Shown here: positions 1 to 13,560 of the stretch, piece after piece
Layout: each line of letters starts with the position of its first letter
Numbering within the stretch: the first letter of the stretch is position 1
The notes under the pieces: model-generated
The model's database searches: none
What the model was told of the DNA's origin: nothing
Seen by the model: the letters and a program-made list of their open reading frames with translations, nothing else
Translations under genes and position numbers: made by a program
DNA from: Fibrobacterota bacterium
Lineage (GTDB): Bacteria > Fibrobacterota > Fibrobacteria > UBA11236
Length of the DNA stretch: 13,560 nt
Direction of reading: 5' to 3'
Assembly (NCBI GenBank): GCA_043753995.1
Contig: JAYUVP010000087.1
Location: 1 to 13,560 of the forward strand

Positions 1-241
1 GTCGATTTACAGGGCTTCGATTCCACTTCTGAATTCTTCGTTCAGAGGCGAAATTCCCGCTCCTTTTTCCTCGCTCATTTCAACTCTCAAAGAGTCTCGC
101 GCCGCTGGGGCTGCGAGCCGTTTTCTTCGTGACCGGCTTGTCTTTCGACCGCCGCGTCATTCTCAAAACGGGAGAGCAAACTTATCTACTTGAATCGGAA
201 GTGGCAAGGGTTTTAAGGCAACATTTTTGAAAGACTTACAA

Positions 242-338
242 CTATTAACAGAGAGTGCACAATTGTGGATAAGTTACCCACAGTGACTCTCAAAGTTTTG
301 AAAAACAGGCCAAATTCCTTAGCGCTGCATGTGGATAA
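242..338. promoter_or_regulatory. DnaA-box cluster (candidate oriC or DnaA-binding locus)
   Basis: TGTGGATAA (reverse complement of consensus TTATCCACA) at 264-272 and 330-338; TTACCCACA (1 mismatch) at 274-282, back-to-back with the first; degenerate CTATTAACA at 242-250; AT-rich tract at about 205-250; no convincing ORF in 1-318. Confidence 0.55.
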
Positions 339-1182
339 AACGTGGATTTCCGGACCAGTCTTTTTCTGGACCGCTAAAAACCCAATTCATGCCGGCGATT
401 TTTTCCATCAAGATGGGGATTTGGGGGGGCGAAGATTCGATCCAGAGGTGTCCGCCGGGTTTTAAACGGGGGAAAGCCTGCTGAATGAGGAGCCAAGGCA
501 GCTCCCAACCCTGTTCGCCGCCATACAAGGCCAAATCGGGATCCCAGTCGCGCACCTCGGGTTGAAGGCTAGGCTTTTCGTGACGGCCTATATACGGAGG
601 ATTGGAGATGATGAGGTCGAATTGGATGTCGGGGGGAAGGGGCTGAAATAGCGAGCCTGCATAGAACAGCTGAAAGGGAAGGTTTTGGTTTCGGGCATTT
701 TCGCAGCAGAGTTCAAGCGCGGGGGGTGACGCCTCGGTTCCGTAAACTTGCAGGTTACTGCGCTCTTTGAGGAGGCTGAGAGCGATGGCGCCGGTGCCGA
801 GTCCGATATCGAGGGCGATGAGGCCGTCACCGGGTGGCAAGCTGCGCAGGGCCAGGTCGACAAGCACTTCGGTTTCGGGGCGCGGGATGAGGGCGCGGGA
901 ATCGACTTTGAGTTGCAATTCGCGAAAGGGCCAGTTGCCGAGCAAATGCTGTAGGGGCTCGCGCAAGCCGCGGCGACGGACGAGGTCGCGGCATTTTGTG
1001 AGTTCGGGTTCGGTGAGCGGTCGATCGAAGTTGAGATAGAGGTCGAGGCGTTTCATGTGGAGCGCATGGGCTAAAAGAATTTGCGCGTCGAGGCGGGCAT
1101 TGGGTATGCCCTTTTGTTTAAAGTAGTCGGCGGTCTTATTGAGGACTTCGAGTACGGTGGACGTCGCAGCGGGATCACTCAC
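319..1182 (-). CDS. prmC: Release factor glutamine N5-methyltransferase PrmC (HemK)
   Basis: 287 aa; N-terminal '[11 protein letters not shown]', '[13 protein letters not shown]', '[12 protein letters not shown]', SAM-binding '[12 protein letters not shown]', catalytic 'SNPPY'. GTG start overlaps the prfA stop (GTGA), giving the canonical prfA-prmC pair. Confidence 0.97.
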
Positions 1183-2270
1183 ATTAAATCCTGACGCTCT
1201 AAGGCGCGAAGCTTCTCGGCATTGGCTTCCATGCCGAGGGCGTCGATGAGTTCCTCGATGGCGCCATGCATGACGGCGTCGAGCTTATAAAGGGTGAGTC
1301 CGACGCGATGATCGGTGACGCGGCCCTGCGGGAAATTGTAGGTGCGGATTTTGGCGCTGCGATCGCCGGTGCCAACCTGGGCCTTGCGCGTGGCGGCCTC
1401 TTTGGCTTCTTGCTCGCTCAGCCTTTTGTCGAGCAATTTGGACTTGAGCACATTCATGGCCTTGGCGCGATTCTTGTGCTGGCTGCGTTCGTCCTGGCAG
1501 GCGACGACAATGCCGCTGGCGATATGGGTGATGCGCACGGCGGAATCGGTTTTGTTGATGTGCTGCCCACCGGAGCCTCCGGCGCGGAAGGTGTCGACGC
1601 GAATGTCTTCGTCCTTGATGACGATGTCATCGACTTCGTCGGCGACGGGCATGATGACCACGGTGGCGGCCGATGTATGCACGCGGCCTTGGGTTTCGGT
1701 GTCAGGCACGCGCTGCACGCGATGCACGCCGCTTTCGTATTTGAGCGTGCCATAGGCTCCGGGGCCGGAAACTTCGGCGACCACTTCTTTATAGCCGCCC
1801 ATGGTGCCCTCGTTTTCATCGAGCACGGTGAAGCGCCAGCGCCTGGACTCGCAGAAATACTTGTACATGCGGAAGAGGTCGCCCGCGAAGAGGCTGGCCT
1901 CGTCACCACCCGTGCCAGCGCGTATTTCGATGATGGCATCGCGCTCGTCGGTTTTCTCTTTGGGGATCAGGGCGAACTTGAGATCTTGCTCAAGGCCGGG
2001 CATGGCTTCGTCGAGGCGCTTGACTTCGTCTTGTGCCAAGGATTGCATTTCGGGATCGGAGCCGTCGTCGGAGGCTTTTTTCCAATCGGCGCGCTCTTGC
2101 GTGGCGTCGAGATAGGCATGCGCCTTGGTGACGCTGTCGGCGAGGTCCTTGAGCTGTTTATTGAGTGCGACCATTTTTTGCATGTCATTGAGCTGGTCGG
2201 GCCTTTGCAGGGCGCTTTCCATCTCTTGATTGCGTTCGATGAGTTTGCGGGCTTGAGCGTGTAAGTCCAT
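1179..2270 (-). CDS. prfA: Peptide chain release factor 1
   Basis: 363 aa; '[11 protein letters not shown]', '[16 protein letters not shown]' (RF1-type PxT tripeptide), '[16 protein letters not shown]' (GGQ), '[14 protein letters not shown]'. No frameshift. Confidence 0.98.
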
Positions 2271-2349
2271 GGGGCGGGAAAGGTACCAAGGCGCTGGGGA
2301 TGCTGTGGGGTGGCTTTGCTACGAGGCTCCTATCCCCTGGGGCATTGCG

Positions 2350-2460
2350 GGCGCGGCTGATGTTCGGGCCAGATTTGGGCTCGCGGTCCTCGGCTTTGGC
2401 ATTGCCCTGGAGTCTATATCCTGCGGAGCGAGCCCAAATCTGGCCGCTCACCGCCGCGCC
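2350..2460. repeat. Long inverted repeat / hairpin element
   Basis: Perfect 18-bp inverted repeat GGCCAGATTTGGGCTCGC (2367-2384) / GCGAGCCCAAATCTGGCC (2428-2445), extended by GGCGCGGC (2350-2357) / GCCGCGCC (2453-2460). Confidence 0.8.
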
Positions 2461-2486
2461 GGCATTGTTCCGCGGGGGTGGCGATT

Positions 2487-2531
2487 CGAGGGAAGCCCCT
2501 CGCGCGTTGCCGCGCCTTGGGGCTTTCCTCG
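2487..2531. repeat. Stem-loop with GNRA tetraloop on the minus strand
   Basis: CGAGGGAAGCCCC (2487-2499) pairs with GGGGCTTTCCTCG (2519-2531) with one non-Watson-Crick position; inner GCGCG-TTGC-CGCGC reads CGCG-GCAA-CGCG on the minus strand. Confidence 0.7.
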
Positions 2532-2544
2532 CTGGTATCGGGCG

Positions 2545-2890
2545 GGGAAATCCTGCGGGGCAATACGGCAGGGCATTCTGCGGAGCTGTCTAGCAGGGGG
2601 ATCTTGGGGAATCACACAGGGAAATGCTGCGAAGCTGTCAAACAGGGGAGCTACAGGGGGGCGAGGGAAATGCGGTGACGCGAGTCTGCGGGGTAATGCT
2701 ACGAAGCTGTTTGGCGGAGGGCAGGGAAAAGCAGCGGAGTGGTCTAACTAGGAATAAAGAGAAATGTGTGGGGGCGATCTCGCAGAGCATTGTCTCGCGG
2801 AGGCGTTCCAAGGGAGAGCCTTTGGAGAATGCTACGGAGAAAGCGCACTAGGGGGCAAGAAATAGATTGTGGCAATGATTCGCGGAAATC
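2545..2890 (+). repeat. Degenerate direct-repeat array, core GGG(A/C)AATGCT(G/A)CG(G/A)AG
   Basis: Copies near 2545 (gggaaatcctgcgggg), 2571 (gggcattctgcggagctgtc), 2619 (gggaaatgctgcgaagctgtc), 2666 (gggaaatgcggtg), 2691 (gggtaatgctacgaagctgtt), 2724 (gggaaaagcagcggag), 2824 (ggagaatgctacggag), 2871 (ggcaatgattcgcgg). Spacing is irregular. Confidence 0.6.
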
Positions 2891-2899
2891 GTGCTTTGC

Positions 2900-2952
2900 G
2901 AACTTGCAGTGTGTGGTAAGGGTTGAGTTAATTTGGTTGCGCTCTACGTTTG
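2900..2952 (+). promoter_or_regulatory. Candidate promoter(s) of the lipoprotein-sigma operon
   Basis: TTG (2923-2925)-N19-TACGTTTG (2945-2952) matches the Bacteroidota housekeeping TTG-N19-TAnnTTTG pattern, 12 nt before ATG 2965. An overlapping GAAC (2900-2903)-N18-GTTG (2922-2925) resembles generic ECF promoters. Both motifs are short. Confidence 0.3.
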
Positions 2953-2964
2953 AAAGCTCTCGAA

Positions 2965-5283
2965 ATGACGATTCGCAAATTGGCTGGCTTGGCTTTGCTA
3001 GTAACGCTTTGGGCGGGATGCTTTCGCGATGAGGGAATTGTGGATGTCACCAAGCCGGGAAATATTGCTCCGCTGGCGAAGTTTCGCGGGCGGGCTTATA
3101 ACGAGGGCGACACGACCTTGCCCTCCAATCGATTGCTGGAGCTTGTTCATCCGACCATTGCCTTGGTCTATCACTATATAGGTACCAGGGAAAATATTCG
3201 CACCATGACCGAAGGCGTGGTGGCGACTTCACCGCCTTTTGCATTTCAAATCGAGATGAAACAGGCTCCGCCATCCAGCATTCAGCACGATGATGAGGTC
3301 GCCGTTGGATTGTTTTGGCTTTTTTCCGATCGCAATGGGAATGGCAAATTCGATCGCGGTACGCATCCTGAATACGCCAAGAAATTGCAGGAAATCGATT
3401 CTCTGACTCACCTTTATTATCAAGTGAACGATTCTCTGTTGGCTATTAGCGAAATCCATCTTGAAGGCGTGGCTGTGGAGGAAACCACTTTGGTGGGAGC
3501 ACAAGGCCTCACTCTGATTCGGAACGGAATCAAGGTCGACACGGTTTGGCCAGCCATGCCGGCTTTTTCGACCACGGCCATGGATGCACCATTTGCACGT
3601 CAAAAGGTTGTTTTGGCCCAAGACAGGTGGGAGAAGTTTTTTGATTTGAGGAAAAGGTCTAATTCCATAAGCTATTCGGCCATACCCAATGCAGACTATT
3701 CGCTCGAAATGGTGATGCGATATTCCAGGCGACTATTTCCGAAGTCCGGTATGGAAAGCAAATTCAATCAAGGCGTGATTGACTTGGCATTACTTTCGAC
3801 CAAAAAGTCGGTCTTAGCTACGAAATATCAAGGCGAAGCCTTTCAAAAAGGATGGCTCGATTATCCCTATACCGGATTTGAAGAACCGGGCGCCGATTGG
3901 GGTGCAGGGAGAAGCCGAGATCAATTTGTCTTTTTCTTTCCAACATGGAAATCCATTGATATAATGAGGCGCGCAGAAAAAAGCAGTTCTTTCAAAATCG
4001 CGAATGTTCATCAAATCGTACCGGGCTATAATTTGATGGAATGCGATGATCAATACAATTGTCGACGATTGGATGAGAGCGCCGAGATTAAAATCTACAT
4101 GGGGAAATCCGAACTTTATTTCAATCCGCCTTCTGTAACCAAGCCCTTTGCCTTACCCACAGTCGATTCGACGCTATGGATTAAAAACGTTGACGTTGAG
4201 GGGACTTATCCATTTCAGCCGGGTATTGATTTCTCGGTCCAAAAAGTTGGTGCCGATTTTTGGTTGGATGCGGCATTATTCGGAATGACTCGGCTGCAAA
4301 TGGTGGACAGCGTGCGCGGAGTTGGTATGGGTCTCGCTATGCAAATCCAATTCGTGTCAAATGAAAAGCATGAAGTCGAAAAAATGATTTTGGATTGGAA
4401 AGGCGAACGCTATGTCGCGGTGAAAACATCTAACCGAATCAGCGCAGGTAGATCGGAAAACGTGACAAACCATGCTCAAGCACAGGAAAGTGAATTAAGT
4501 ACTGGCATCACGGTATCCCTGAAGCAAAGCTATCGGTGGTATGGACTGGACACTTTGAAATTTTCGGAAGCATCCTCCAAATCGGTTTGGCTGAGTGGCA
4601 AGGGCATTCCGAAGCAAAAATTCGTGGCGGTTGATTCAAACACTTTGATTTCTCAATTCAGCGGCATTGAATTGAAATGGCGGCGCAAATCGGATCAAAT
4701 GGAAGGGGAATGGTATTTATTGACGGGCGGTACAGAATATCGCATTCCACCGATTTTCTTAATGGGCACCCAAAACGATACTGCGGGTCTGGGCGCATAC
4801 GGTTTGATACAGGATGTACAGGGAACAGCAAGAGAAACCTTTGTCGATTTTCAGGGTAAACCAAGATTTTCTTGTGCCGAGGATTCGCTTTATTTGGTCA
4901 ATGGTGATTCCGGATTACGACGCAATCTGCCGGTTCAGCGAAACGATCAAATTGCTTTGGAAGGGGACGGCGAATTTGAGATTGAAGTTCCCGTGGATAG
5001 TTCCTCTGATAGCCTTAGCATAACCCTTGATTTCTGTGGAGCAAAAAACTCGGGCAAACAAGCAGCCTTAATGCGCGTGCTTTGGAAATCCGATTCGGCT
5101 GATTCGTGGTCGGAGATGATGCCCAGTTTTTGGCTTCCGGCCCTTTCGAATGGGTCTCGCAAAATGCACCTCCACTTCGCCACTCCCTTGGGTCGAATAT
5201 TGGGGTTCAAGTTTGAAAATTTGAGCCAACCAGGAATAACTCCTCTCTTGTCTCTCGATCGTTATCGAATTTATTCAAAATGA
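2965..5283 (+). CDS. Large multidomain lipoprotein of unknown function with a Ca-binding-like loop and two DUF3471-like repeats
   Basis: ORF track starts at TTG 2950; ATG 2965 gives MTIRKLAGLALLVTLWAG-C (basic N-region, hydrophobic core, lipobox). 'FSDRNGNGKFD' is a Dx[DN]x[DN]G-like loop. Two approx. 80-aa beta-rich segments ('VEGTYPFQPGIDFSV...GERYVAVK' and 'LKQSYRWYGLDTLKF...GTEYRIP') resemble DUF3471 by eye. Stop overlaps the sigma start (ATGA). Confidence 0.8.
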   Translation: MTIRKLAGLALLVTLWAGCFRDEGIVDVTKPGNIAPLAKFRGRAYNEGDTTLPSNRLLELVHPTIALVYHYIGTRENIRTMTEGVVATSPPFAFQIEMKQAPPSSIQHDDEVAVGLFWLFSDRNGNGKFDRGTHPEYAKKLQEIDSLTHLYYQVNDSLLAISEIHLEGVAVEETTLVGAQGLTLIRNGIKVDTVWPAMPAFSTTAMDAPFARQKVVLAQDRWEKFFDLRKRSNSISYSAIPNADYSLEMVMRYSRRLFPKSGMESKFNQGVIDLALLSTKKSVLATKYQGEAFQKGWLDYPYTGFEEPGADWGAGRSRDQFVFFFPTWKSIDIMRRAEKSSSFKIANVHQIVPGYNLMECDDQYNCRRLDESAEIKIYMGKSELYFNPPSVTKPFALPTVDSTLWIKNVDVEGTYPFQPGIDFSVQKVGADFWLDAALFGMTRLQMVDSVRGVGMGLAMQIQFVSNEKHEVEKMILDWKGERYVAVKTSNRISAGRSENVTNHAQAQESELSTGITVSLKQSYRWYGLDTLKFSEASSKSVWLSGKGIPKQKFVAVDSNTLISQFSGIELKWRRKSDQMEGEWYLLTGGTEYRIPPIFLMGTQNDTAGLGAYGLIQDVQGTARETFVDFQGKPRFSCAEDSLYLVNGDSGLRRNLPVQRNDQIALEGDGEFEIEVPVDSSSDSLSITLDFCGAKNSGKQAALMRVLWKSDSADSWSEMMPSFWLPALSNGSRKMHLHFATPLGRILGFKFENLSQPGITPLLSLDRYRIYSK

Positions 5284-5840
5284 ATGCGCCATTGATCCCA
5301 AGCCTAGAAGAGGTTTTCAAATCGCATTCGAGCATGGTCTATCGCATTTGCCGACGTTATGTCAAAGGTGAGGAAGATGCTCAGGATTTGGCGCAAGACG
5401 TTTTTTTAAAGCTTCATGATAAACTGGCATCGTTTCAGGGGCATTCTTCGCTGACGACCTGGCTTTATCGCGTAACCGCCAATATTTGCATGGATCATAT
5501 TCGGTCGAGAAAATTTCAAGGTATGCTGGATATTGACGACTTGGATGAAATCGTCACACATAACCTTTCGGCTTCGGGAAATGCCGAATTGGCTAAAATC
5601 GACCTGGAAAGGTTATTGAAGCATGTGCAACCCAAAACCCGCGAACTTTTATTTTTGGTGCTGGCCGAAGGGCTAAGCTATACCGAAGCAGGGGAAATGG
5701 TCGGCATGGAAAAATCAGCCGTGGCGAAACAAGTCACCCGGTTTTTGGCCAGCCGAAGCGGCAAGGTGCAAGCAGGAAAACCAGGCATTTTTAGCGCAAT
5801 AATCACCATTGTCCACGCTACCCTGATCGGACGCGTCTAA
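5280..5840 (+). CDS. ECF-type RNA polymerase sigma-70 factor
   Basis: 186 aa; region 2 'VYRICRRYV..EEDAQDLAQDVFLKL...FQGHSSLTTWLYRVTANICMDHIR'; region 4 'RELLFLVLAEGLSYTEAGEMVGM..SAV'; no region 3. Confidence 0.95.
   Translation: MNAPLIPSLEEVFKSHSSMVYRICRRYVKGEEDAQDLAQDVFLKLHDKLASFQGHSSLTTWLYRVTANICMDHIRSRKFQGMLDIDDLDEIVTHNLSASGNAELAKIDLERLLKHVQPKTRELLFLVLAEGLSYTEAGEMVGMEKSAVAKQVTRFLASRSGKVQAGKPGIFSAIITIVHATLIGRV
5809..5840 (+). promoter_or_regulatory. Candidate ECF promoter, copy 1 (TTGTCCACG-N16-CGTCTAA), overlapping the 3' end of the sigma gene
   Basis: TTGTCCACG 5809-5817 and CGTCTAA 5834-5840; the same elements and spacing recur at 8251-8282; 5 nt upstream of anti-sigma ATG 5846. Confidence 0.65.
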
Positions 5841-5845
5841 ATCGT

Positions 5846-6649
5846 ATGCTCAAGTCGCGCCCGCCATCGAATTCTCCCGAAGAGCCAATGAATTCCGGAT
5901 TCTCTTTATTTCAAATTGAGCGCTTTCTTTTGGGAGAGCTTTCCCCTGCCGAGCAAGGCGAAATCACCCGTGCCGCAGAAGGCAATCCGAAGCTGGCAGC
6001 CTATATTCAAAGGGCTCGGGTGTGGACCGAAGAGTCTAAGCAATTGAAGCTTCCACCTAGCCCGGTAGCTCGTAAGCGGGGCGACTGGGAATGGCTTGCG
6101 GGGATGAAAAATCGCTTGCAGGGATGGGTGAGCGCCTGGGAAAGGCCAGCCTGGGCCATGCCTGGATTAGCCATGGCCTCGGTGATTTTGGTGATCGGTG
6201 TTTTTTCGATCACCACCTTTCAGGGCAATCCTAATAATTCCGTGAAAACCTTGAGCCCCAAGGGTGGCCTTGGCGCCGATATGTCCATCGAGCATAAAAC
6301 GGTGAGCTTTACTGCAGGTTCGGATATCGCTGTAAGTCCAGGGGATACCTTGCGGATTTCCTATCGCAGCTCGGATTCCCTGTTTTTCCAGCTTTGGAAT
6401 AAAGATTCGCATGGTGAATTTAGCCGCTTGCATCAAGCCGAGGGAGAGTCCCTGCCCGCTTCGGCCAAGTGGAAGCATAGTGGAAAAAGTTTGGTCTTGG
6501 ATCAGGGTGAAAGCCCTCGCCAACTCGTGCTGATTTGGGCTGGCTCCAAGTCCGAGCTTTTTGATTTGGGAAAAAGATTAAGCGATGGTGGGAAAATCCC
6601 AGAAGACAAACGCGCTGTATTTCATATACACTCCACTAAGACTCAATGA
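5846..6649 (+). CDS. Putative transmembrane anti-sigma factor with a C-terminal DUF4384-like periplasmic domain
   Basis: Immediately follows the ECF gene. N-terminal 'IERFLLGELSPAEQ' is typical of anti-sigma domains but lacks the HxxxCxxC zinc ligands. One TM helix 'WAMPGLAMASVILVIGVFSITTF' (about 6152-6220), linker 'TLSPKGG', then 'VSPGDTLRISYRSSDSLFFQLWNKDSHG' (DUF4384-like by eye). Alternative start ATG 5888. Confidence 0.8.
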   Translation: MLKSRPPSNSPEEPMNSGFSLFQIERFLLGELSPAEQGEITRAAEGNPKLAAYIQRARVWTEESKQLKLPPSPVARKRGDWEWLAGMKNRLQGWVSAWERPAWAMPGLAMASVILVIGVFSITTFQGNPNNSVKTLSPKGGLGADMSIEHKTVSFTAGSDIAVSPGDTLRISYRSSDSLFFQLWNKDSHGEFSRLHQAEGESLPASAKWKHSGKSLVLDQGESPRQLVLIWAGSKSELFDLGKRLSDGGKIPEDKRAVFHIHSTKTQ

Positions 6650-8235
6650 AAGTCGCTTTTTTCATAGGACTTTTTCTAGTAGCCTGGGTGTCGGCGAATA
6701 TTTCCTCGCCCATCGAAAGATACGCCATCGTCATCGGTAATAATCGCGGCCTGCCCAAGGAGAGGCCATTGAAATACGCAGCCAAGGATGCTGCAGAAAT
6801 GGCCCGAGCTTTGATTCGCGGCCAGGCCTTTGAAGATGACCGAGTATATTGCTTGCAAAATCAGCCACTTGAAAACATTCGTAATTCTATTTCGGAACTT
6901 CGTGGGCGTTTATTCGAAATCAAAAAAACCGGTAAAAAGACGTTGGTGATGGTGTATTTCAGCGGCCATGGCAGTAAAGGGGGACTGCATATCGAGGGTC
7001 GGCTGTGGAATCGGGAAGACTTTGTGGCCGCCTTCGACGAAATTCAAGGCGATTTAAAAATCTTGATCTTGGATGCTTGCGAATCAGGAGACTTTTTGCG
7101 CAGCAAAGGCATGAAATTAATTGATGAACGAATCATCGAACAAGAGGATTTACTGGGTACGCATGGCCGAATTCTTTTAAGCGCCTCCGCCAAGGGTGAA
7201 GCCGCCCAGGAAAGCGAAGATTATCGCGGCGCCGTTTTCACCCATCATTTGCTGAACGGAATTCGTGGCCTCGCAGATTATGACCAAGACGGGCAGATTC
7301 GCTTGCTCGAAGCTTTCGACTATGCCCAAACCGCCACGAGAAAAGAAAACAATTTCGGTGAAAGCGCTATGCAATCACCATCTTTTGATTTCGACGTAGT
7401 CGGCGAGAACGATCCCGTATTGGCCCGAATGGAAAAGAAAGACGTCCAGGTGCAATTCGTGGGATTAGATGCGGGCACCTTACGCGTCTTCGCCTATCCT
7501 TACAAGGAGGTGGCCTATCATCTTTATCTCACGGGAAGAAAAACTGCCAATATATCCATTCCCTCCGGACGCTATCTCTTTGCGGTGGGGGAAGCAGAAA
7601 AGTGGCTAGTGGCTGAATCAGATCTGCGTTGGGGGGCGCAAACTCAAATCCGAGCAGAAAGTTTTCGCCAAAAGCCTCGTCCGTTCTTTTCGCCGAAAGG
7701 TGGTGTGCCCGCCACGCTTTGGCAAGAACAGGTTGTTTTGCCATCCTTGCGGAGAGTCGCGGCCGTCGATCCTATCAACTTGTTTGAACTTGCTTATTCT
7801 CTGGGGCAAGCGGCGCATGATTTGACGCTCACGGTTGGATATGGCAAAGGCCGCGAAAGCCTGAGCACATGGGGCCTAAGCCAGCAAATGACGCAGTATC
7901 GCTTAGGATTGGGCAGCGCTTGGCCGATTTTCACGCGCTGGGGTTTTCAAACTTCGCTTGGCGCAGAAGCTTCGGTGAATATTGTGCAGCAGCGTGTGCA
8001 TGATAGTCGCCTGGACAATACTGACCTCGCTAGCGGCGGGCTTCGCAGCGATGCCGAGCGAAGCGCCTTGGTTTACGGTATCAGTTTGCCTGTTGGCGCA
8101 AGCTTTGATTTGCCCTGGCGAATGCGCCTGGCTGGGTCTTGGGGACCCGCGGCCTATACTTACAGGGAAGCGGCCGAAGGCCGCGTTTACAAGCTCCGCC
8201 CCGAGTTTAGGCTCGGCGGCGGACTGCGGTTTTAA
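6646..8235 (+). CDS. Exported caspase-family (peptidase C14) protease with a C-terminal outer-membrane beta-barrel-like domain
   Basis: Signal peptide MKVAFFIGLFLVAWVSA; 'RYAIVIGNN', 'LKYAAKDA', 'YFSGHG' (His108, 6967-6969), 'ILDACESG' (Cys145, 7078-7080), 'AAQESEDYRGAVFTHHLLNGIRGLADYDQDGQIRLLEAFDY'; amphipathic beta-strands ending in 'EFRLGGGLRF' with terminal Phe. ATGA overlap with the anti-sigma gene. Confidence 0.92.
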   Translation: MKVAFFIGLFLVAWVSANISSPIERYAIVIGNNRGLPKERPLKYAAKDAAEMARALIRGQAFEDDRVYCLQNQPLENIRNSISELRGRLFEIKKTGKKTLVMVYFSGHGSKGGLHIEGRLWNREDFVAAFDEIQGDLKILILDACESGDFLRSKGMKLIDERIIEQEDLLGTHGRILLSASAKGEAAQESEDYRGAVFTHHLLNGIRGLADYDQDGQIRLLEAFDYAQTATRKENNFGESAMQSPSFDFDVVGENDPVLARMEKKDVQVQFVGLDAGTLRVFAYPYKEVAYHLYLTGRKTANISIPSGRYLFAVGEAEKWLVAESDLRWGAQTQIRAESFRQKPRPFFSPKGGVPATLWQEQVVLPSLRRVAAVDPINLFELAYSLGQAAHDLTLTVGYGKGRESLSTWGLSQQMTQYRLGLGSAWPIFTRWGFQTSLGAEASVNIVQQRVHDSRLDNTDLASGGLRSDAERSALVYGISLPVGASFDLPWRMRLAGSWGPAAYTYREAAEGRVYKLRPEFRLGGGLRF

Positions 8236-8250
8236 AGCGCGAAAAGATTT

Positions 8251-8282
8251 TTGTCCACGATGGCGGGGTCGGCGCCGTCTAA
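8251..8282 (+). promoter_or_regulatory. Candidate ECF promoter, copy 2 (TTGTCCACG-N16-CGTCTAA)
   Basis: TTGTCCACG 8251-8259 and CGTCTAA 8276-8282; intergenic, just after the caspase stop; TCGG sits at the same spacer position as in copy 1. Confidence 0.65.
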
Positions 8283-8369
8283 TCCTTTACAACCCGCGTG
8301 ACGGACCGAAGGTGTTTCCGACAAAAACCTGCTTTTGGTAATGCCCGCCAGAACATCCACGAGAGACGT

Positions 8370-9242
8370 ATGACAAATATTTTTCGACTTCTGTCAATCG
8401 CTCTGACCTTTAATGCCTTGACCCATGTTGCTCACTCAGCATCGAATCAATGCTACTATAGCAGAGAACATTTTCTTGGGATGGGGAGCACATACACCCT
8501 CGACTCCACCGTCATCATTAAAAGAAAAAATCAGGAACTTGTAAGTCGTATTGCTTTTACATATAAAATAAACGAAGACACTATTTATTCCTCCTATAAA
8601 GTAACCCGCCCCGATGATTCAATACTTGTTGATTTGGCCGGTTCATTTGCTTTCAAAAACCGAGTATGGCTTTTTACAGACACGTCAGACCACGATACCA
8701 ATCTTATCGTGAATACCACCGCCACGTATTTTAATGATAAATACAAAATAGACTCTATCGTTGAAATGCGTATTTCCAGTACGGCAGAGTTGGATGAAAA
8801 AGAAATTCATTACAATACTGATTCGGCCCAAGTCCAATACAAAATTTATCCAAATCGCCCTCCAATTATAGATTCCACAGTATTTAATCAAGCCGGCCTT
8901 GTTAAATATTCCATTGAGGGTGACTCCATTCACGCGATTGACACATGCATTTCATTAGATACCATTTGCGTTTGTCATGGTGACAGACAAGATCGCCGTT
9001 TGGAATATCAAGTCATCAATGATCAAATTCAGTATGAACTTGAATTTTTTGTTGGGTATGAATCAGAAATACGTCACTTCTGGAGCAACAAGCAATCGAG
9101 CATTCATGGGTTGAATTCAAAGAGACGCGCCGTAACGCAATTCGACAGAACAAAGCGATTTACTCTCGATGGACGACAAGTTTACATCTCCAATGTGCCC
9201 CGTATCCCTAAATCACTCACTTGGCCACGAAAAGCTCAATGA
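8370..9242 (+). CDS. Secreted hypothetical protein with a basic C-terminal 'FTLDGR' tail
   Basis: ORF is open from GTG 8298; ATG 8370 gives a signal peptide (MTNIFRLLSIALTFNALTHVAHS-A). Beta-rich D/T/Y body; Lys/Arg-rich C-terminus containing FTLDGRQV; AT-rich codon usage. Confidence 0.75.
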   Translation: MTNIFRLLSIALTFNALTHVAHSASNQCYYSREHFLGMGSTYTLDSTVIIKRKNQELVSRIAFTYKINEDTIYSSYKVTRPDDSILVDLAGSFAFKNRVWLFTDTSDHDTNLIVNTTATYFNDKYKIDSIVEMRISSTAELDEKEIHYNTDSAQVQYKIYPNRPPIIDSTVFNQAGLVKYSIEGDSIHAIDTCISLDTICVCHGDRQDRRLEYQVINDQIQYELEFFVGYESEIRHFWSNKQSSIHGLNSKRRAVTQFDRTKRFTLDGRQVYISNVPRIPKSLTWPRKAQ

Positions 9243-9886
9243 CAAATCAATTGCGTTTCGGAAATGGGCGCGACTTTTCACAGATTAAAAGTTTAATAGC
9301 AACACTTACGCTATTCCTTGCTTCCAGCCTTTGGGCCGAAGGTATTAGCTCACAACTTAATTTTACGATTGGACCCGCTTTTGGAATTGCCCATGCCGTC
9401 GATGGAAAGCATGGTGGCATGGCTGCGGGAATCGTGTTTTTGGCATCCACCAGTCACCTTGAGATGGGCTCGTCCATTCAATTCATTGGTGAAATAACCA
9501 ACCCATTGAGCCATCACAAAACCGATCCTTCCGAGAGATATCTGAGCACTGAGTTTATTTCAGGACTAAAGCTTCCGATAAATAAAGTGATTTTTTCTGG
9601 AGGGCTTGGAGGCGGACTGCTTTGGGGTAAAGCACGCACTGAACTTTTTCGTAGCGATACGAATTGTGTGATGGGATTCTTTTCCATAGAATGCTTGGAT
9701 ACACCAGAAGTCACTAATCGTTACTATTCTCAAAATATCAGTACGATTTCCGTTTCTCCCTATGCTCGCGTAGATTTTCAACTAAAGCGATTTTTCGGAT
9801 TAGGAGTGATGTATAAAGCAATTTTAAATGATAAACAAGGTCTTGGCGTGTTTTCGATTTTATGGTATTATGGTAATAGGCAATAG
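9239..9886 (+). CDS. Hypothetical exported protein, probable small outer-membrane beta-barrel
   Basis: ATG 9239 overlaps the upstream stop (ATGA). Hydrophobic segment 'LIATLTLFLASSLWA-E'; alternating Gly/aromatic strands ('VIFSGGLGGGLLWG', 'FFGLGVMYK', 'FSILWYYG'). Confidence 0.65.
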   Translation: MTNQLRFGNGRDFSQIKSLIATLTLFLASSLWAEGISSQLNFTIGPAFGIAHAVDGKHGGMAAGIVFLASTSHLEMGSSIQFIGEITNPLSHHKTDPSERYLSTEFISGLKLPINKVIFSGGLGGGLLWGKARTELFRSDTNCVMGFFSIECLDTPEVTNRYYSQNISTISVSPYARVDFQLKRFFGLGVMYKAILNDKQGLGVFSILWYYGNRQ

Positions 9887-10400
9887 TGTCATAGTTGATT
9901 TAAGGAAAAAATCTGCTCATTATGCCCTCGGATTCTTGCTCACTATCTGCGGATGCGATGTCATTGATCCTCAGGATCATGGGCCTATCGATACCCAATA
10001 TTTATGGCAAGCTTGGGAAACCACGGGTTGGCATGGAGACCTGAGGGATTTTCCAGCAGGCACAGTAATCGTGGAGCGATATCACAACGATTCGACAGCA
10101 TTTGAAAATACAGGAACTGGGCCAGAATATCATATCCCGCGATATTGCAGACTTTATCACTGCAATCCTGATAACCCTGACACCTGCGTCTGGTACCACG
10201 ACAACTATTTTCATATTGAATCGGATACAGTATTGAATTTTTCTATTCCAACCATTAATGATAAGCGCACCATTTTAAGGTTGACGGACTCGAACTTCAC
10301 TTACCTCGATCGATCAATGCGCGCCCACTTTATCCCAAGCAAACGCGTTTTGGCAGACACCAATGGCGGCGATTTGACCATTCATTCCTCCGGTGAGTGA
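9870..10400 (+). CDS. Hypothetical lipoprotein, lipocalin-like
   Basis: ORF is open from 9828; ATG 9870 is the nearer start. 'RKKSAHYALGFLLTICG-C' lipobox; 'YLWQAWET' and 'TILRLTDSNFTY' resemble the GxW and ILxLTxxxL motifs of bacterial lipocalin-like domains. Start uncertain. Confidence 0.65.
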   Translation: MVIGNSVIVDLRKKSAHYALGFLLTICGCDVIDPQDHGPIDTQYLWQAWETTGWHGDLRDFPAGTVIVERYHNDSTAFENTGTGPEYHIPRYCRLYHCNPDNPDTCVWYHDNYFHIESDTVLNFSIPTINDKRTILRLTDSNFTYLDRSMRAHFIPSKRVLADTNGGDLTIHSSGE

Positions 10401-10428
10401 AAGGCCCGCGAAGTAACTCCGGTGGGGA

Positions 10429-10544
10429 GGTCGAGGCCGACAAGGCGGAAGCGGCGGTGGTGGACTGCGGAGAAAGACCCGTCACCGACGCGTTACGTGG
10501 GCAGGCCGAGACCGGGGGAGGCGGAGCCTCGCCCCGAAAAAAAA
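10429..10544. other. GC-rich multi-stem palindromic element between convergent genes
   Basis: GGTC-GA-GGCC (10429-10438) / GGCC-GA-GACC (10504-10513); inner CGGTGGTGG / CCGTCACCG; then hairpin CGGGGGAGGC-GGA-GCCTCGCCCCG (10513-10536) followed by A8. Confidence 0.5.
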
Positions 10545-10568
10545 GCTGCGAAGAAAAATAAGATGTGC

Positions 10569-11843
10569 CTATAAAGCTACGCGCTTCTTCTTCTCCGCCC
10601 GCCCGTCCAAACGCCGGTCGGGCATCAGGCCTAGGGCTTCCAAGCCATAGCGGTTGCGGAGGGAGCTGCGGCGCTGGGGCAGAATGACGCTCCCCGTGGC
10701 GCCATCCTTAAAGGTAACGCGAAAGAGACTGCCATTCGACGTGCCGCGGTTGATATAGTACATGACGCCATCCGCTCCGAATTTGATGTCGACGGGGGCA
10801 CCCGCTTCGGTAGCGAAATCGGAGACGGTTGTTGGATTTTCAATGTCCAATACTTTTATCCAACTGGTATTGTAGTCGGCGAAGAAGAATTTGCGATGAA
10901 AGCTGGATGGGAAATTGCGGGTTCCGGTGAACCCTGTGCCGGTGGGGGTATAGAAAGAGGCCGCGATAATGCAGCCGCTTTTATAGGCATGGATGGCGGG
11001 TTTGAATGTGCCGACTATGCCTGTGGTATTGGTCGGCACGGTATAGCCTTCGGCGCGTCCATAGCCATAATTGTGGCCTGCCGATAATTCATTCACTTCT
11101 TCGGAGGCATCACCAACTTCACAACCGAACATACGGCCTGTGACCTTGTCGATGGAAAAGGTGAAGGTATTGCGCATGCCTGCGGTGTATATCGCCTGGG
11201 CCTTGCCTGTGGTTTGGGTCATGAAGGGATTATCGGAGGGTATGCTGCCGTCCTCATTGAGGCGCAGGATTTTTCCGAGGACCATGGTCATGTCCAGGGC
11301 GCTGTTCATGGCGCGATTGCCCGAGGAGACATAAAGCTTGCCGTCATTGCCGAAATGAATGGCGCCGCCATCGTGATTGTCGCCGGTGCCGGTCGGGATT
11401 TCGAAAATCACTTGCTCGCCGTCGACACCACCCACCGCGGTATCCCCGTCGGCCTTGAAGCGGCTCACGCGATTGGTTTTGGCGGGTAGGGTGTAATAGA
11501 CATAGACCCAATTGGAGTCCGGGAATTTAGGATGAAAGGTGACACCCAATAATCCCTGTTCGCTAGATGTCGAGACGCTCAGCTTGAGGAAAGGCTTGGT
11601 GAGCAATTGGTTGTTTTTATACACGCGCAAGGAGCCGCTTTTGCTGCATATGAAAATTCGGCCGTCGGGGGCGATTTCCATGGCTGTGCCATCCAGGTTG
11701 GTGGCTAGGGAGGTTTCCGTAAAGCTCTTGTCGGTGAAGGTGGCTGCCGACGTCAAAACAAAGGTCCCTATCAGAATCGCAAAGGCCATTTTCAAGGCAG
11801 CGGGTGGGGTACTTGGCATGATGGACTCCAGGAAAGTTTTCAT
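10569..11843 (-). CDS. PQQ-dependent sugar dehydrogenase (glucose/sorbosone dehydrogenase family, beta-propeller), secreted
   Basis: 'MEIAPDGRIFI', 'SEQGLLGVTFHPKF', 'NHDGGAIHFGNDGKLYVSSG', 'GKILRLNEDGSIPSDNPF', 'GMRNTFTFSID', 'GHNYGY', 'FFADY', 'PVDIKFGADGVMYY'. The ORF-track start at 11942 lies in a terminator; ATG 11843 or 11819 precedes the signal peptide ('MAFAILIGTFVLTSAA'). Confidence 0.9.
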   Translation of the reverse strand: MKTFLESIMPSTPPAALKMAFAILIGTFVLTSAATFTDKSFTETSLATNLDGTAMEIAPDGRIFICSKSGSLRVYKNNQLLTKPFLKLSVSTSSEQGLLGVTFHPKFPDSNWVYVYYTLPAKTNRVSRFKADGDTAVGGVDGEQVIFEIPTGTGDNHDGGAIHFGNDGKLYVSSGNRAMNSALDMTMVLGKILRLNEDGSIPSDNPFMTQTTGKAQAIYTAGMRNTFTFSIDKVTGRMFGCEVGDASEEVNELSAGHNYGYGRAEGYTVPTNTTGIVGTFKPAIHAYKSGCIIAASFYTPTGTGFTGTRNFPSSFHRKFFFADYNTSWIKVLDIENPTTVSDFATEAGAPVDIKFGADGVMYYINRGTSNGSLFRVTFKDGATGSVILPQRRSSLRNRYGLEALGLMPDRRLDGRAEKKKRVAL

Positions 11844-11932
11844 ATCACTATAGCGCAAAAGGGTTTTGAGTTGCTGGCGCTTTTCGGCGGGACTTGAGCT
11901 GATTTCGGCACCTGATGACTCACCGTCTGGGC

Positions 11933-11965
11933 AAAAAAACACCCACCGTCCTTACGGACGGTGGG
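11933..11965 (-). terminator. Rho-independent terminator
   Basis: Minus strand reads CCCACCGTCC-GTAA-GGACGGTGGG-TGTTTTTTT: perfect 10-bp stem, GNRA loop, U7 tail. Confidence 0.85.
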
Positions 11966-12032
11966 CTCGTTTCGGTAACGGCGCTTGGGGAGGAGAAGTG
12001 AGGAGGGAAGGCGCCGCCCCGTTCCGACTCTC
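11933..12032 (-). ncRNA. Candidate approx. 100-nt small RNA with an anti-Shine-Dalgarno (CCUCC) loop
   Basis: Minus strand: stem (TCGGAACG..CGGCGC / GCGCCGTTACCGA) encloses the pyrimidine loop CTTCCCTCCTCACTTCTCCTCCCC, followed directly by the terminator; CGTCTAA lies 5 nt upstream (12038-12044). Confidence 0.45.
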
Positions 12033-12116
12033 ACAAGTTAGACGGTATCCCCAGCAAAACCCAGGGGTAGATATGTTTTCAAATTCAGCCCCCTGATTGC
12101 GGGCCACTTGGCTATT

Positions 12117-12452
12117 TCACGCAAATACGCGAAGCGAGCGGCAATAATCGCGTAAAATCGAGAGCCCACCGGTATAGCCCAAATCTCGCAGCTCCATATA
12201 GAGCCGCATGATTTTGCCCTGGGGATTGGCCTCAATGCGGGCATTTACCAGGGGAATATAGGGTTGCAGCTTGCGGCTGCCGGAGGGACGGCCTCGGCGT
12301 TTTCCCGGTTGAAACACGCGTTGATGCACGTGATTGTAAACCGTCCGACGGGAATAGCCCGTGGTGGCGGCAATGCGGGTTTGGGTCCAGCCTTGGCGAT
12401 GCAATTCCAAAATGCTCTGATGATGCTCGGGGAGCTCTGTTTGCGGGTTCAT
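12117..12452 (-). pseudogene. IS21-family IstA transposase N-terminal (HTH) fragment, or a domesticated HTH protein
   Basis: 111 aa; 'ILELHRQGWTQTRIAATTGYSRRTVYNHV' HTH and 'RKLQPYIPLV...RLYMELRDLGYTGGLSILRDYCRSLR' match the IstA N-terminus. The ORF stops before the DDE domain; no istB and no terminal repeats seen. Confidence 0.75.
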
Positions 12453-12570
12453 ACCGATAAGACGAAAAATGTTGTGTACATGTCTCCGCTTTTTCGATTT
12501 TTTTTCTTTCCGTCGAAGTTTGCCCTAAGCCGGGGGCTGAAGGGAGTAGCGAGCTTGTTATTGTTGTCTC

Positions 12571-13233
12571 ATGACTTTGCCCTGCAAGCTTGCTCCGAGC
12601 ATTTTAAACGCTGATTTTTCCCGCCTGGGAGAGGCGGTGACCGCCGTGGAGAAAGGCGGCGCCGACTTATTGCATTTCGATGTGATGGACGGCCATTTCG
12701 TCCCCAATATGTCCTTTGGGCCCGTGGTATTGCAGGCCCTGAAGCCGCGTACTCGCCTGCCACTGGACTGCCATCTCATGGTGCGCGATCCCGAGCGCTT
12801 TGTGGAATGGTTTGCCGATGCGGGTGCTGACTCCATTACGGTGCATGCCGAATCGACCGTGCATCTCGACTCTTTGTTGCGACGAATACGTCAGCGCGGT
12901 TGCCGTGTGGGCGTGAGCCTGAACCCCGCCACACCGCTATCCGTTTTAGAATGGGTATTACCTGATATCGACATGGTTTTGCTGATGTCGGTGAATCCGG
13001 GCTTCGGTGGGCAAAAGTTCATCCCTTATAGCTTAGAGCGGGCCAAGCAACTGCGCGCCATGTGCGAGGCTCGGGGACTTCAGACCGATATTCAAATGGA
13101 CGGTGGTATCAATTTGAATAATCTCGGTGACTTACGAAATGCTGGCGTGAATGTTTTTGTCGTGGGAACGGCGATTTTCCACAGCGAGAATCCGGTCGCA
13201 GCCACCCAGGCATTCAAGGCTGCCTTGGTTTGA
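12571..13233 (+). CDS. rpe: Ribulose-phosphate 3-epimerase
   Basis: 220 aa; 'LAPSILNADF', 'HFDVMDGHFVPNMSFG', 'DCHLMV', 'LMSVNPGFGGQKFI', 'MDGGIN'. Confidence 0.98.
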   Translation: MTLPCKLAPSILNADFSRLGEAVTAVEKGGADLLHFDVMDGHFVPNMSFGPVVLQALKPRTRLPLDCHLMVRDPERFVEWFADAGADSITVHAESTVHLDSLLRRIRQRGCRVGVSLNPATPLSVLEWVLPDIDMVLLMSVNPGFGGQKFIPYSLERAKQLRAMCEARGLQTDIQMDGGINLNNLGDLRNAGVNVFVVGTAIFHSENPVAATQAFKAALV

Positions 13234-13237
13234 TTGG

Positions 13238-13560
13238 CTAATCAGAAAAGGGTGCCGTATTCAAGATCAATCCAAAGTTCAACCAGAGCTTGGAATTGTC
13301 CAAATCCCCTGCTTGATACAAAGGCAGGGAAATCCCCGTTTGGAATTGCCCTTTCACGGCTTTATAGCCAGCCCGAAAGGTGAATGCCGGCTCTAGAAAA
13401 AAGCCCCAATGCTGGCCGGGATAGACCAAGGGTATTTCATTGCCGTCCCATGCCTTAAAATCAAAATATCGAAATCCGGAAACTCGCAAGGACCCGGCGC
13501 GATCAAAGATTCGACCTCGCTTTCCCCAATGGCCTTGTAAAAAAATTTCATAATACTGGC
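13238..13560 (-). CDS. C-terminal part of a hypothetical protein (outer-membrane beta-strand-like), truncated by the window edge
   Basis: Frame stays open from 13558 (QYYEIFLQGHWGKRGRIFDRAGSLRVSGFRYF...FFLEPAFTFRAGYKAVKGQFQTGIS...LWLNFGLILN...) to the stop at 13238; convergent with rpe, 4-nt gap. Confidence 0.7.
   Translation of the reverse strand, partial: QYYEIFLQGHWGKRGRIFDRAGSLRVSGFRYFDFKAWDGNEIPLVYPGQHWGFFLEPAFTFRAGYKAVKGQFQTGISLPLYQAGDLDNSKLWLNFGLILNTAPFSD

Follow-up and report, generated by a model that had tools for sequence, protein, structure and literature searches.

In the sigH-rshA operon of Corynebacterium glutamicum, the sigma gene is under housekeeping promoters and a separate sigma-dependent promoter, PrshA, lies directly before the anti-sigma gene, an arrangement for which a fast shut-off has been proposed (PMC3489674). 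In Myxococcus xanthus, DdvS, a sigma factor of the extracytoplasmic function (ECF) type, and the single-pass anti-sigma factor DdvA are accompanied by several local promoter copies with cGT at the -10 element (PMC11506125, PMC6061681), and a periplasmic caspase-clan protease has been proposed as the site-1 protease acting on the juxtamembrane linker, with RseP at site 2 (PMC11506125). In Haliangium ochraceum, a sigma factor, a small partner and a Peptidase C14 protein are clustered (PCc-sigma/PCi/PCk/PCaspase), and the caspase cuts its neighbours (10.1101/2023.06.23.546230). We describe a related locus in a 13,560-nt stretch of DNA from a Fibrobacterota bacterium (assembly GCA_043753995.1, contig JAYUVP010000087.1, positions 1 to 13,560 of the forward strand; hereafter the window). 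A lipoprotein gene is followed by genes for an ECF sigma factor (5280-5840), a probable anti-sigma factor and an exported caspase-like protease, all on the forward strand, and two identical copies of the bipartite motif TTGTCCACG-N16-CGTCTAA are very probably the cognate -35/-10 promoters of this sigma factor.

The promoter wiring of the window has a clear precedent in PrshA, in that the sigma gene would be under a housekeeping-type promoter and a separate, predicted sigma-dependent promoter lies directly before the anti-sigma gene. The C. glutamicum system differs in its soluble zinc anti-sigma factor, its GGAA/GTT motif and its monocistronic message, which carries the inhibitor only, whereas the window has a putative membrane anti-sigma factor and a TGTCC/CGTCTAA motif, and the same promoter would also drive an exported protease and cargo genes. 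The features listed above for DdvS/DdvA all recur in the scheme proposed for the window. However, DdvA carries its own TPR-CHAT domain, while the membrane protein of the window has no CHAT or TPR match and the protease is encoded separately, as a C14 protein with an outer-membrane barrel. DdvS also has a promoter before its own operon and an AAc -35 element, needs CarD-CarG and controls CRISPR/CBASS genes; no CRISPR-Cas or CBASS open reading frame (ORF) was found among the ORFs of the window and the fetched loci. The Haliangium system shares the clustered gene types, but it is linked to a type III-B CRISPR system and SAVED-CHAT, includes a kinase and has PCi as a protease inhibitor. None of SAVED-CHAT, the kinase PCk or type III CRISPR was present among the window ORFs, the rest of the genome not having been searched for them, and the window caspase, unlike PCaspase, has a signal peptide and a barrel.

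Among the classified ECF groups, ECF21, ECF35, ECF105 and ECF116 resemble the window in having a CGTCT(A) -10 element, and ECF25 resembles it in having DUF4384 anti-sigma factors and includes a Fibrobacteres subgroup; a single-pass anti-sigma factor at position +1 is a further point of resemblance to these groups (PMC7826278 supplement). TGTCC combined with CGTCTAA is absent from the available passages of that supplement, and its remainder, or Datasets S1-S2 of PMC7776599, could hold the motif. In these passages ECF250 is the only group with TGTCC, combined with another -10 element, and a caspase neighbour is not mentioned for the ECF groups. No paper on the present module was found in a literature search in which subscription journals were poorly covered. 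Judged by analogy, the module resembles PrshA in its wiring and DdvS/DdvA in its protease logic, and is a member of neither of these systems nor of the SAVED-CHAT/PCaspase cascade.

The two motif copies are located on the forward strand at 5809-5840 and 8251-8282, and the pattern was absent from each of 200 dinucleotide shuffles of the window; the initial annotation of this DNA had reported the same two elements with their 16-nt spacers, and both were re-found. Copy 1 (-35 element TTGTCCACG at 5809-5817, -10 element CGTCTAA at 5834-5840) overlaps the sigma ORF at its final 11 codons, and its terminal TAA is the sigma stop codon, an overlap that the initial annotation had missed, although it had correctly placed the copies ahead of the anti-sigma/caspase pair and of three genes for exported proteins. 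Copy 2 starts 15 nt past the caspase stop (8235), between this gene and the three exported-protein genes. From the usual ECF spacing, transcription starts (+1) are predicted at about 5846-5847 for copy 1 and about 8288-8289 for copy 2. In the genome that holds the window (G000; 5.2 Mb in 356 contigs, to which the C-numbers below refer), the exact motif occurs three times, each time with a 16-nt spacer. The third copy, at G000:C55(-)10437 and upstream of a lipoprotein gene, had escaped the initial annotation, which did not report copies elsewhere in the genome. A single copy with one mismatch was found in G000, and its spacer is again 16 nt. G000 also gave 31 matches to the Fibrobacter family TIGR02147, and these matches and the Atlas taxa point to a probable Fibrobacterota. 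The earlier remark that the two window spacers differ except for TCGG describes them correctly, but the shared TCGG is taken as chance and was rejected as a meaningful spacer element, since it is missing from the C55 copy and from 21 other sigma-end spacers.

The module of lipoprotein, ECF sigma, anti-sigma-like and caspase-barrel genes recurs across the phylum. We compared 64 distinct sigma factors whose gene is followed by an anti-sigma-like or caspase gene, 24 with and 40 without the lipoprotein gene (loci are given as L-numbers and other genomes as further G-numbers). A span of 240 nt starting at the end of the sigma core was searched, and the expectation was summed from local background rates. 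The -10 pattern was present near the sigma end in 20 of the 24 lipoprotein modules, with about 1.6 expected; 19 of these sites are credible, and the match in L101 looks like chance because it has no -35 element. Among the 40 modules without the lipoprotein it was present in 2, most of the 40 differing in specificity residues, so that promoters of other sequence are possible there. As the module genomes are kin and some are near-copies, these counts overstate independence. In lipoprotein modules collected after the motif had been defined, the site was found in 8 of 9. An unprimed k-mer count, from which the window and two near-copies were excluded, returned CGTCTAA as the top word (10 of 21 sequence spans, 0.41 expected).

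The 21 sigma-end sites are spread over frames 0, 1 and 2 (6, 9 and 6 sites, respectively), and the points at which they end range between 97 nt upstream and 83 nt downstream of the sigma stop. Sites in all frames and scattered around the stop codon argue for a constraint on the DNA and not on the protein; in the alignment, the C-terminal tail of the sigma factor, which carries copy 1, is unconserved at the protein level. The spacers of the orthologous sites measure 15-17 nt. After the caspase gene, a bipartite site was found in 8 of the 25 modules with a caspase and enough sequence, and G013:C42 has the same plan as the window plus a third site ahead of the next cargo gene. The initial annotation had named a lack of conservation beside orthologous sigma genes as a result that would refute it, and the motif is conserved there, at the same two places and in any reading frame. 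In one sub-clade (L101 at 7189, L113 at 6451, L144 at 5728 of the oriented locus and L154 at 4016), the sigma 3' end lacks the motif, which is instead located within the lipoprotein ORF, 520 nt upstream of the stop codon of that ORF. Its position upstream of the sigma gene would make sigma autoregulation possible; protein-level conservation could also explain it, because it has the same frame in all four loci. The earlier proposal of an internal promoter in place of upstream autoregulation fits the window and most relatives and does not extend to this sub-clade.

Some further features of these loci were recorded. In L117 (6878-7590) the sigma gene is split over two frames, by a frameshift or an assembly error, with an intact sigma-end motif. 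Downstream of the post-caspase site, the window (8290-8320), L101 and L119 have an ACCCGC...AGG-like stretch, which is possibly a common 5' leader element. On G011:C320 (L103, L142), three lipoprotein genes and several sigma, anti-sigma and caspase genes are clustered in two gene orders, with one caspase truncated; in the second sigma factor of this contig the specificity residue of region 2 is Ala, and a sigma-end site is absent. A metagenome scan, performed with a caspase alignment because the anti-sigma alignment was too diverse, gave 41 loci, 6 of them of this module type. A sigma-based search of genome contigs returned, in the best 80 loci kept, only distant ECF sigma factors with 25-42% identity, and was set aside.

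The sigma factor itself (186 aa) is of the ECF (group 4) type, with matches above cut-off to Sigma70_r2 (PF04542), r4_2 (PF08281) and TIGR02937; none of the 25 matches listed was to an NCBIfam subfamily at its cut-off. Its sigma-4 helix, EKSAVAKQVTRF, is of the AVAK type, which is found in 1 of the 15 ECF-like ORFs of G000, that of the window sigma, two other ORFs being incomplete at that helix. Across the modules, AVAK and AVTK helices occur with a GTC[CT] -35 element and AITKR and AISRR helices with GTTAC, and where one module has two copies their -35 elements match (L200, L102, L108). In an alignment with RpoE, Asp72 occupies the position of RpoE-Asn84. An Asp at that position favours CG at -13/-12, with 0.62 of the 16 dinucleotides (PMC7776599 Dataset S3). 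Asp72 thus predicts the CG of CGTC, in agreement with the -10 element, and judging from these sequences the -35 element discriminates better among the G000 sigma factors than the -10 element does.

A matrix was built from 18 sites outside G000, chosen by an upstream GTC, and used to scan G000. The C55 copy and both window copies ranked joint first at 24.9 bits, followed by sites on C247, C295 and C65. Of the four best-scoring sites away from the window, three are not within a called gene and precede a start codon on the same strand by 49-109 nt (background 4.7%, with a crude gene model), so that three or four further copies are counted in intergenic DNA elsewhere in G000. The three genes that follow them are all lipoprotein-like, one of them encoding a GDSL lipase. 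The regulon probably includes these three remote genes for exported proteins and, on the sequences at hand, appears to be small, exported and species-specific. In 41 genomes the TGTCC form of the motif had 22 matches, 6 of them in G000 and 3 beside orthologous sigma genes; the other 13 compare with 10 in the reversed control. Outside the module loci there was no excess in the relatives (40 genomes), the inspected matches were mostly in coding DNA, and remote matches with one mismatch in relatives were taken as chance. At G000:C55 9743-13325 (-), four lipoprotein-like genes, at least three of them clearly paralogous, stand in tandem, and the exact motif is upstream of the last only.

Several of the results weigh against reading the motif as the promoter of this sigma factor, or against the circuit built on it. 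The matrix test is partly circular, because the GTC selection rule was taken from the window motif, and the matrix counts are barely above those of column-permuted matrices (8 against 1-6 above 20 bits, and 27 against 16-109 above 16 bits). The fourth remote site, on C295, points at no called gene. A clear post-caspase site is missing from 17 of the 25 modules, including L150 and L198, where a co-directional, exported-looking gene is present, and 5 of the 24 lipoprotein modules have no credible sigma-end site. The region-2 Asp is also present in four other ECF sigma factors of G000 (C257, C82, C355 and C314), so the -10 element does not single out the window sigma. The covariation of sigma-4 helix and -35 element is confounded, because most of the GTC[CT] group belongs to a single clade, and the single-residue table for Arg171=Ala and Ser172=Lys is nearly uninformative and leaves the -35 element unpredicted (PMC7776599). 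The housekeeping promoter proposed upstream of the lipoprotein gene is weak in the window, where a scan with the consensus sigma-70 promoter found no site, and the anti-sigma role of the next gene is argued solely from position, topology and distant homologues.

This gene (5846..6649, 267 aa) encodes a protein with an N-terminal helical domain, a transmembrane segment at about residues 104-122 (hydropathy) and a C-terminal DUF4384-like domain, and its product is the probable single-pass anti-sigma factor of the window sigma. Its start is at 5846 or 5888. For copy 1, the predicted +1 coincides with the ATG at 5846 or is adjacent to it, and the two closest homologues favour this start and have no Met at 5888, so the message may be leaderless. 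A start at 5888 is also conceivable, because the +1 of a DdvS promoter overlaps an annotated ATG while the true start is later (PMC6061681). The window protein has no Pfam match and lacks the zinc ligands of zf-HC2; among 40 homologues scanned, the zf-HC2 cut-off was reached by 11 and that of DUF4384 by 1, with five weaker DUF4384 matches. Lys139-Gly140 (6260..6265, forward strand), about 17 residues outside the membrane, is a candidate cleavage site. The pair is invariant in 16 of 16 sequences and, in the 141 of 149 aligned homologues with a residue there, Lys is found in 138 and Gly in 139, which makes these the two best-conserved columns of the family.

The protease gene (6646..8235) encodes an exported caspase-like protein with a Peptidase C14 domain (PF00656, above cut-off). 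The predicted structure (pLDDT 71.5) comprises a signal helix, a His108-Cys145 dyad, an Ig-like beta domain, a Lys351-Gly-Gly linker and a C-terminal beta-barrel of the outer-membrane type that ends in Phe. Residues 23-263 matched metacaspase 4 (6w8r; Z 19.5, rmsd 2.9, 205 residues aligned), and residues 358-529 matched the OprF barrel (4rlc; Z 16.1, rmsd 2.2, 131 aligned). His108, Cys145 and Lys351-Gly-Gly are invariant in 13 of 13 caspases. Invariant Lys-Gly pairs occur at 154 and 351; the second belongs to the poorly ordered linker that precedes the barrel. The N-terminus of OprF-like barrels is periplasmic, and the protease is therefore expected to face the outer part of the anti-sigma factor. 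Across the phylum, 218 of 296 genomes contain relatives of this caspase, mostly of more distant paralogue types.

A bacterial caspase that cleaves at Arg-Gly has been reported (10.1101/2025.11.14.688446). On the conserved residues described above, we consider it an even call whether the caspase-like protease cuts the anti-sigma factor at Lys-Gly, and its self-release from the barrel rather doubtful. It is conceivable, if on the unlikely side, that the promoter is real and the caspase is itself an output, an envelope-remodelling or cell-death effector with the membrane protein as its inhibitor or partner, like PCi. The PCi of Haliangium is both an inhibitor and a substrate of PCaspase (10.1101/2023.06.23.546230), and the same account would accommodate the missing zf-HC2 ligands and Pfam match of the window protein and the co-induction of both proteins from a single promoter. 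Against it stand the zf-HC2 anti-sigma domain in distant homologues and the DUF4384 anti-sigma factors noted for ECF25 (PMC7826278 supplement). Moreover, the window caspase is exported and anchored by a barrel, unlike PCaspase as described, and no CRISPR, CBASS, SAVED-CHAT or kinase gene is present in the window.

It is improbable that the sites, taken as ECF promoters, serve mainly another sigma factor of the same cell that shares CGTCTAA, such as the conserved orphan on C257, with the module placed in a wider envelope regulon. This would agree with the region-2 Asp of the C257, C82, C355 and C314 sigma factors and with the enrichment of GTTAC-N17-CGTCTAA across the order (32 matches against 10 in the control, 39 genomes), an excess from which it follows that a second regulon with the same -10 element exists. 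That regulon, however, uses GTTAC, paired with AITKR-type helices like that of C257, whereas the TGTCCAC of the window follows the AVAK clade and, among relatives, the TGTCC form is not in excess beyond the module loci. The GTTAC class probably belongs to a conserved orphan sigma factor (C257 or C299), and some cross-talk between the two classes is conceivable. Two GTTAC-N17-CGTCTAA sites were seen at G000:C261 16006-16034 and 16452-16480 (+), about 30 and 16 nt before two tandem ORFs for small membrane proteins.

G000 also carries further sigma/anti-sigma-like/caspase modules on C82, C240 and C355 and a lone caspase on C234, all of the same broad family, and the C240 sigma clusters with the sigma factors of five modules that come from the largest family within the phylum. 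The window motif was not seen at the junctions of these paralogous modules or at the lone caspase, which says nothing on promoters of other sequence, because the region-2 or region-4 residues differ; the same limit applies to most of the 40 lipoprotein-free modules.

Binding of the boxes by a regulator other than a sigma factor, for instance DnaA, or an action at the RNA level is very improbable. TTGTCCACG is two bases off the DnaA box TTATCCACA, and by this consensus perfect boxes are present at 264-272 and 330-338; the window holds 3 matches of this type with 0.93 expected, and 17 of 200 shuffles scored as high. These two sites near the window start perhaps mark an origin or a dnaA-type promoter. 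A DnaA-type role for the motif is at odds with its fixed orientation, its 15-17 nt spacer, its ECF-type CGTC, its position just before start codons and a -35 element that changes with the sigma-4 helix, as well as with CGTCT(AA) as the predicted -10 element of ECF21, ECF35, ECF105 and ECF116 (PMC7826278 supplement). A duplication or insertion scar around the anti-sigma/caspase pair, which the initial annotation had kept as its alternative, or a by-product of sigma coding with no regulatory role, is barely credible. The copies do flank exactly this gene pair, 2442 nt apart and 72% alike across 32 nt, with copy 1 in coding DNA. However, the spacer of the third exact copy, on C55, is unrelated, and the motif is conserved across the phylum with unrelated spacers, in all three frames and in a sigma tail that is unconserved as protein.

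The gene upstream of the sigma factor (2965..5283) encodes a conserved lipoprotein of 772 aa with an invariant Cys19, and overlaps the sigma start in an ATGA. The lipoprotein was recovered from 13 of the 39 genomes searched within the order. It matched no Pfam or NCBIfam family at cut-off, its best Atlas match reached only 0.77, and its model (pLDDT 76) gave no convincing fold match, with TM-scores below 0.15. The initial annotation found no full motif copy upstream of this gene, in line with the absence of any -10 pattern of the CGTCTAA class from the 300 nt upstream. Upstream of the orthologous lipoprotein genes, TAGAT was found in 13 of 20 regions (2.4 expected), often as TTGxxx-N17-TAGATA, which resembles a housekeeping promoter and may act as one. 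In the window, TAGATT at 2863..2868 (forward strand) is a possible housekeeping-type -10 element, with no TTG -35 element at 17 nt. Scans of the window for sigma-70 promoters and terminators stayed at or below the shuffle level (6 against 9.2 and 10 against 10.7, respectively). The gap between prfA and the lipoprotein gene contains a perfect 18-bp inverted repeat (2367-2445) and degenerate direct repeats of 24-27 nt (2550-2750).

With the two copies read as promoters of the window sigma, the following sequence of events can be proposed. The lipoprotein and the sigma factor would be made from the upstream housekeeping-type promoter, and the sigma factor would be held by the single-pass anti-sigma factor. 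An envelope signal, perhaps via the lipoprotein, would activate the outer-membrane-anchored caspase-like protease, which would possibly free itself from the barrel at Lys351-Gly and cut the anti-sigma factor at Lys139-Gly beside the membrane. A second, RseP-type cut would then free the sigma factor. Free sigma would fire copy 1, yielding anti-sigma factor and protease and no extra sigma, and would also fire copy 2 and the remote copies, yielding exported proteins and lipoproteins, which vary from one species to another. As the sigma gene would not be amplified while its inhibitor and the protease would be, the response would have a cap and a fast shut-off, ceasing once the protease becomes quiet. 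A more far-reaching model, which we consider on the unlikely side, is a CRISPR-independent trans-envelope cascade. In this cascade a barrel-tethered caspase would release itself at Lys-Gly, make the site-1 cut in the anti-sigma factor at Lys-Gly and be replenished, along with its substrate, by a promoter lying within the 3' end of the sigma gene, while the post-caspase promoter would serve as a socket for varied exported cargo. The sigma-4 helix and the -35 element would diversify together, so that several switches in one cell could share a -10 element without cross-talk.

The cargo genes after copy 2 vary among relatives and encode exported proteins in the fetched loci. In the window, the first (8370..9242, forward strand) encodes a protein with a signal peptide that is lineage-specific: the window query gave no match in the order's 38 other genomes that were searched, and its Atlas look-alikes are unnamed. 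The second (9239..9886, forward strand) overlaps the first in an ATGA and encodes a signal-peptide protein without a family. The third (9828..10400, forward strand) has an uncertain start codon and encodes a lipoprotein-like product with a lipobox-like LLTICGC read from the sequence. On the opposite strand, a gene for an exported protein of the glucose/sorbosone dehydrogenase family (10569-11819) is convergent with the cargo genes, and a short IS21-like transposase fragment was noted at 12117-12452 (-).

For most bacterial caspase homologues, neither a substrate nor an output is known. The window offers, together, a candidate substrate bond (the Lys-Gly of the anti-sigma factor), a promoter output that could be used in a reporter, and a regulon. 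Since protease and anti-sigma factor are split over separate genes, the proposal made for DdvA, that a caspase-clan protease acts as the site-1 protease of an anti-sigma factor, becomes testable. The literature search found no study of ECF sigma and anti-sigma factors in this phylum, to which the motif would add a class of promoters, and promoter searches restricted to upstream DNA would miss sigma factors like this one.

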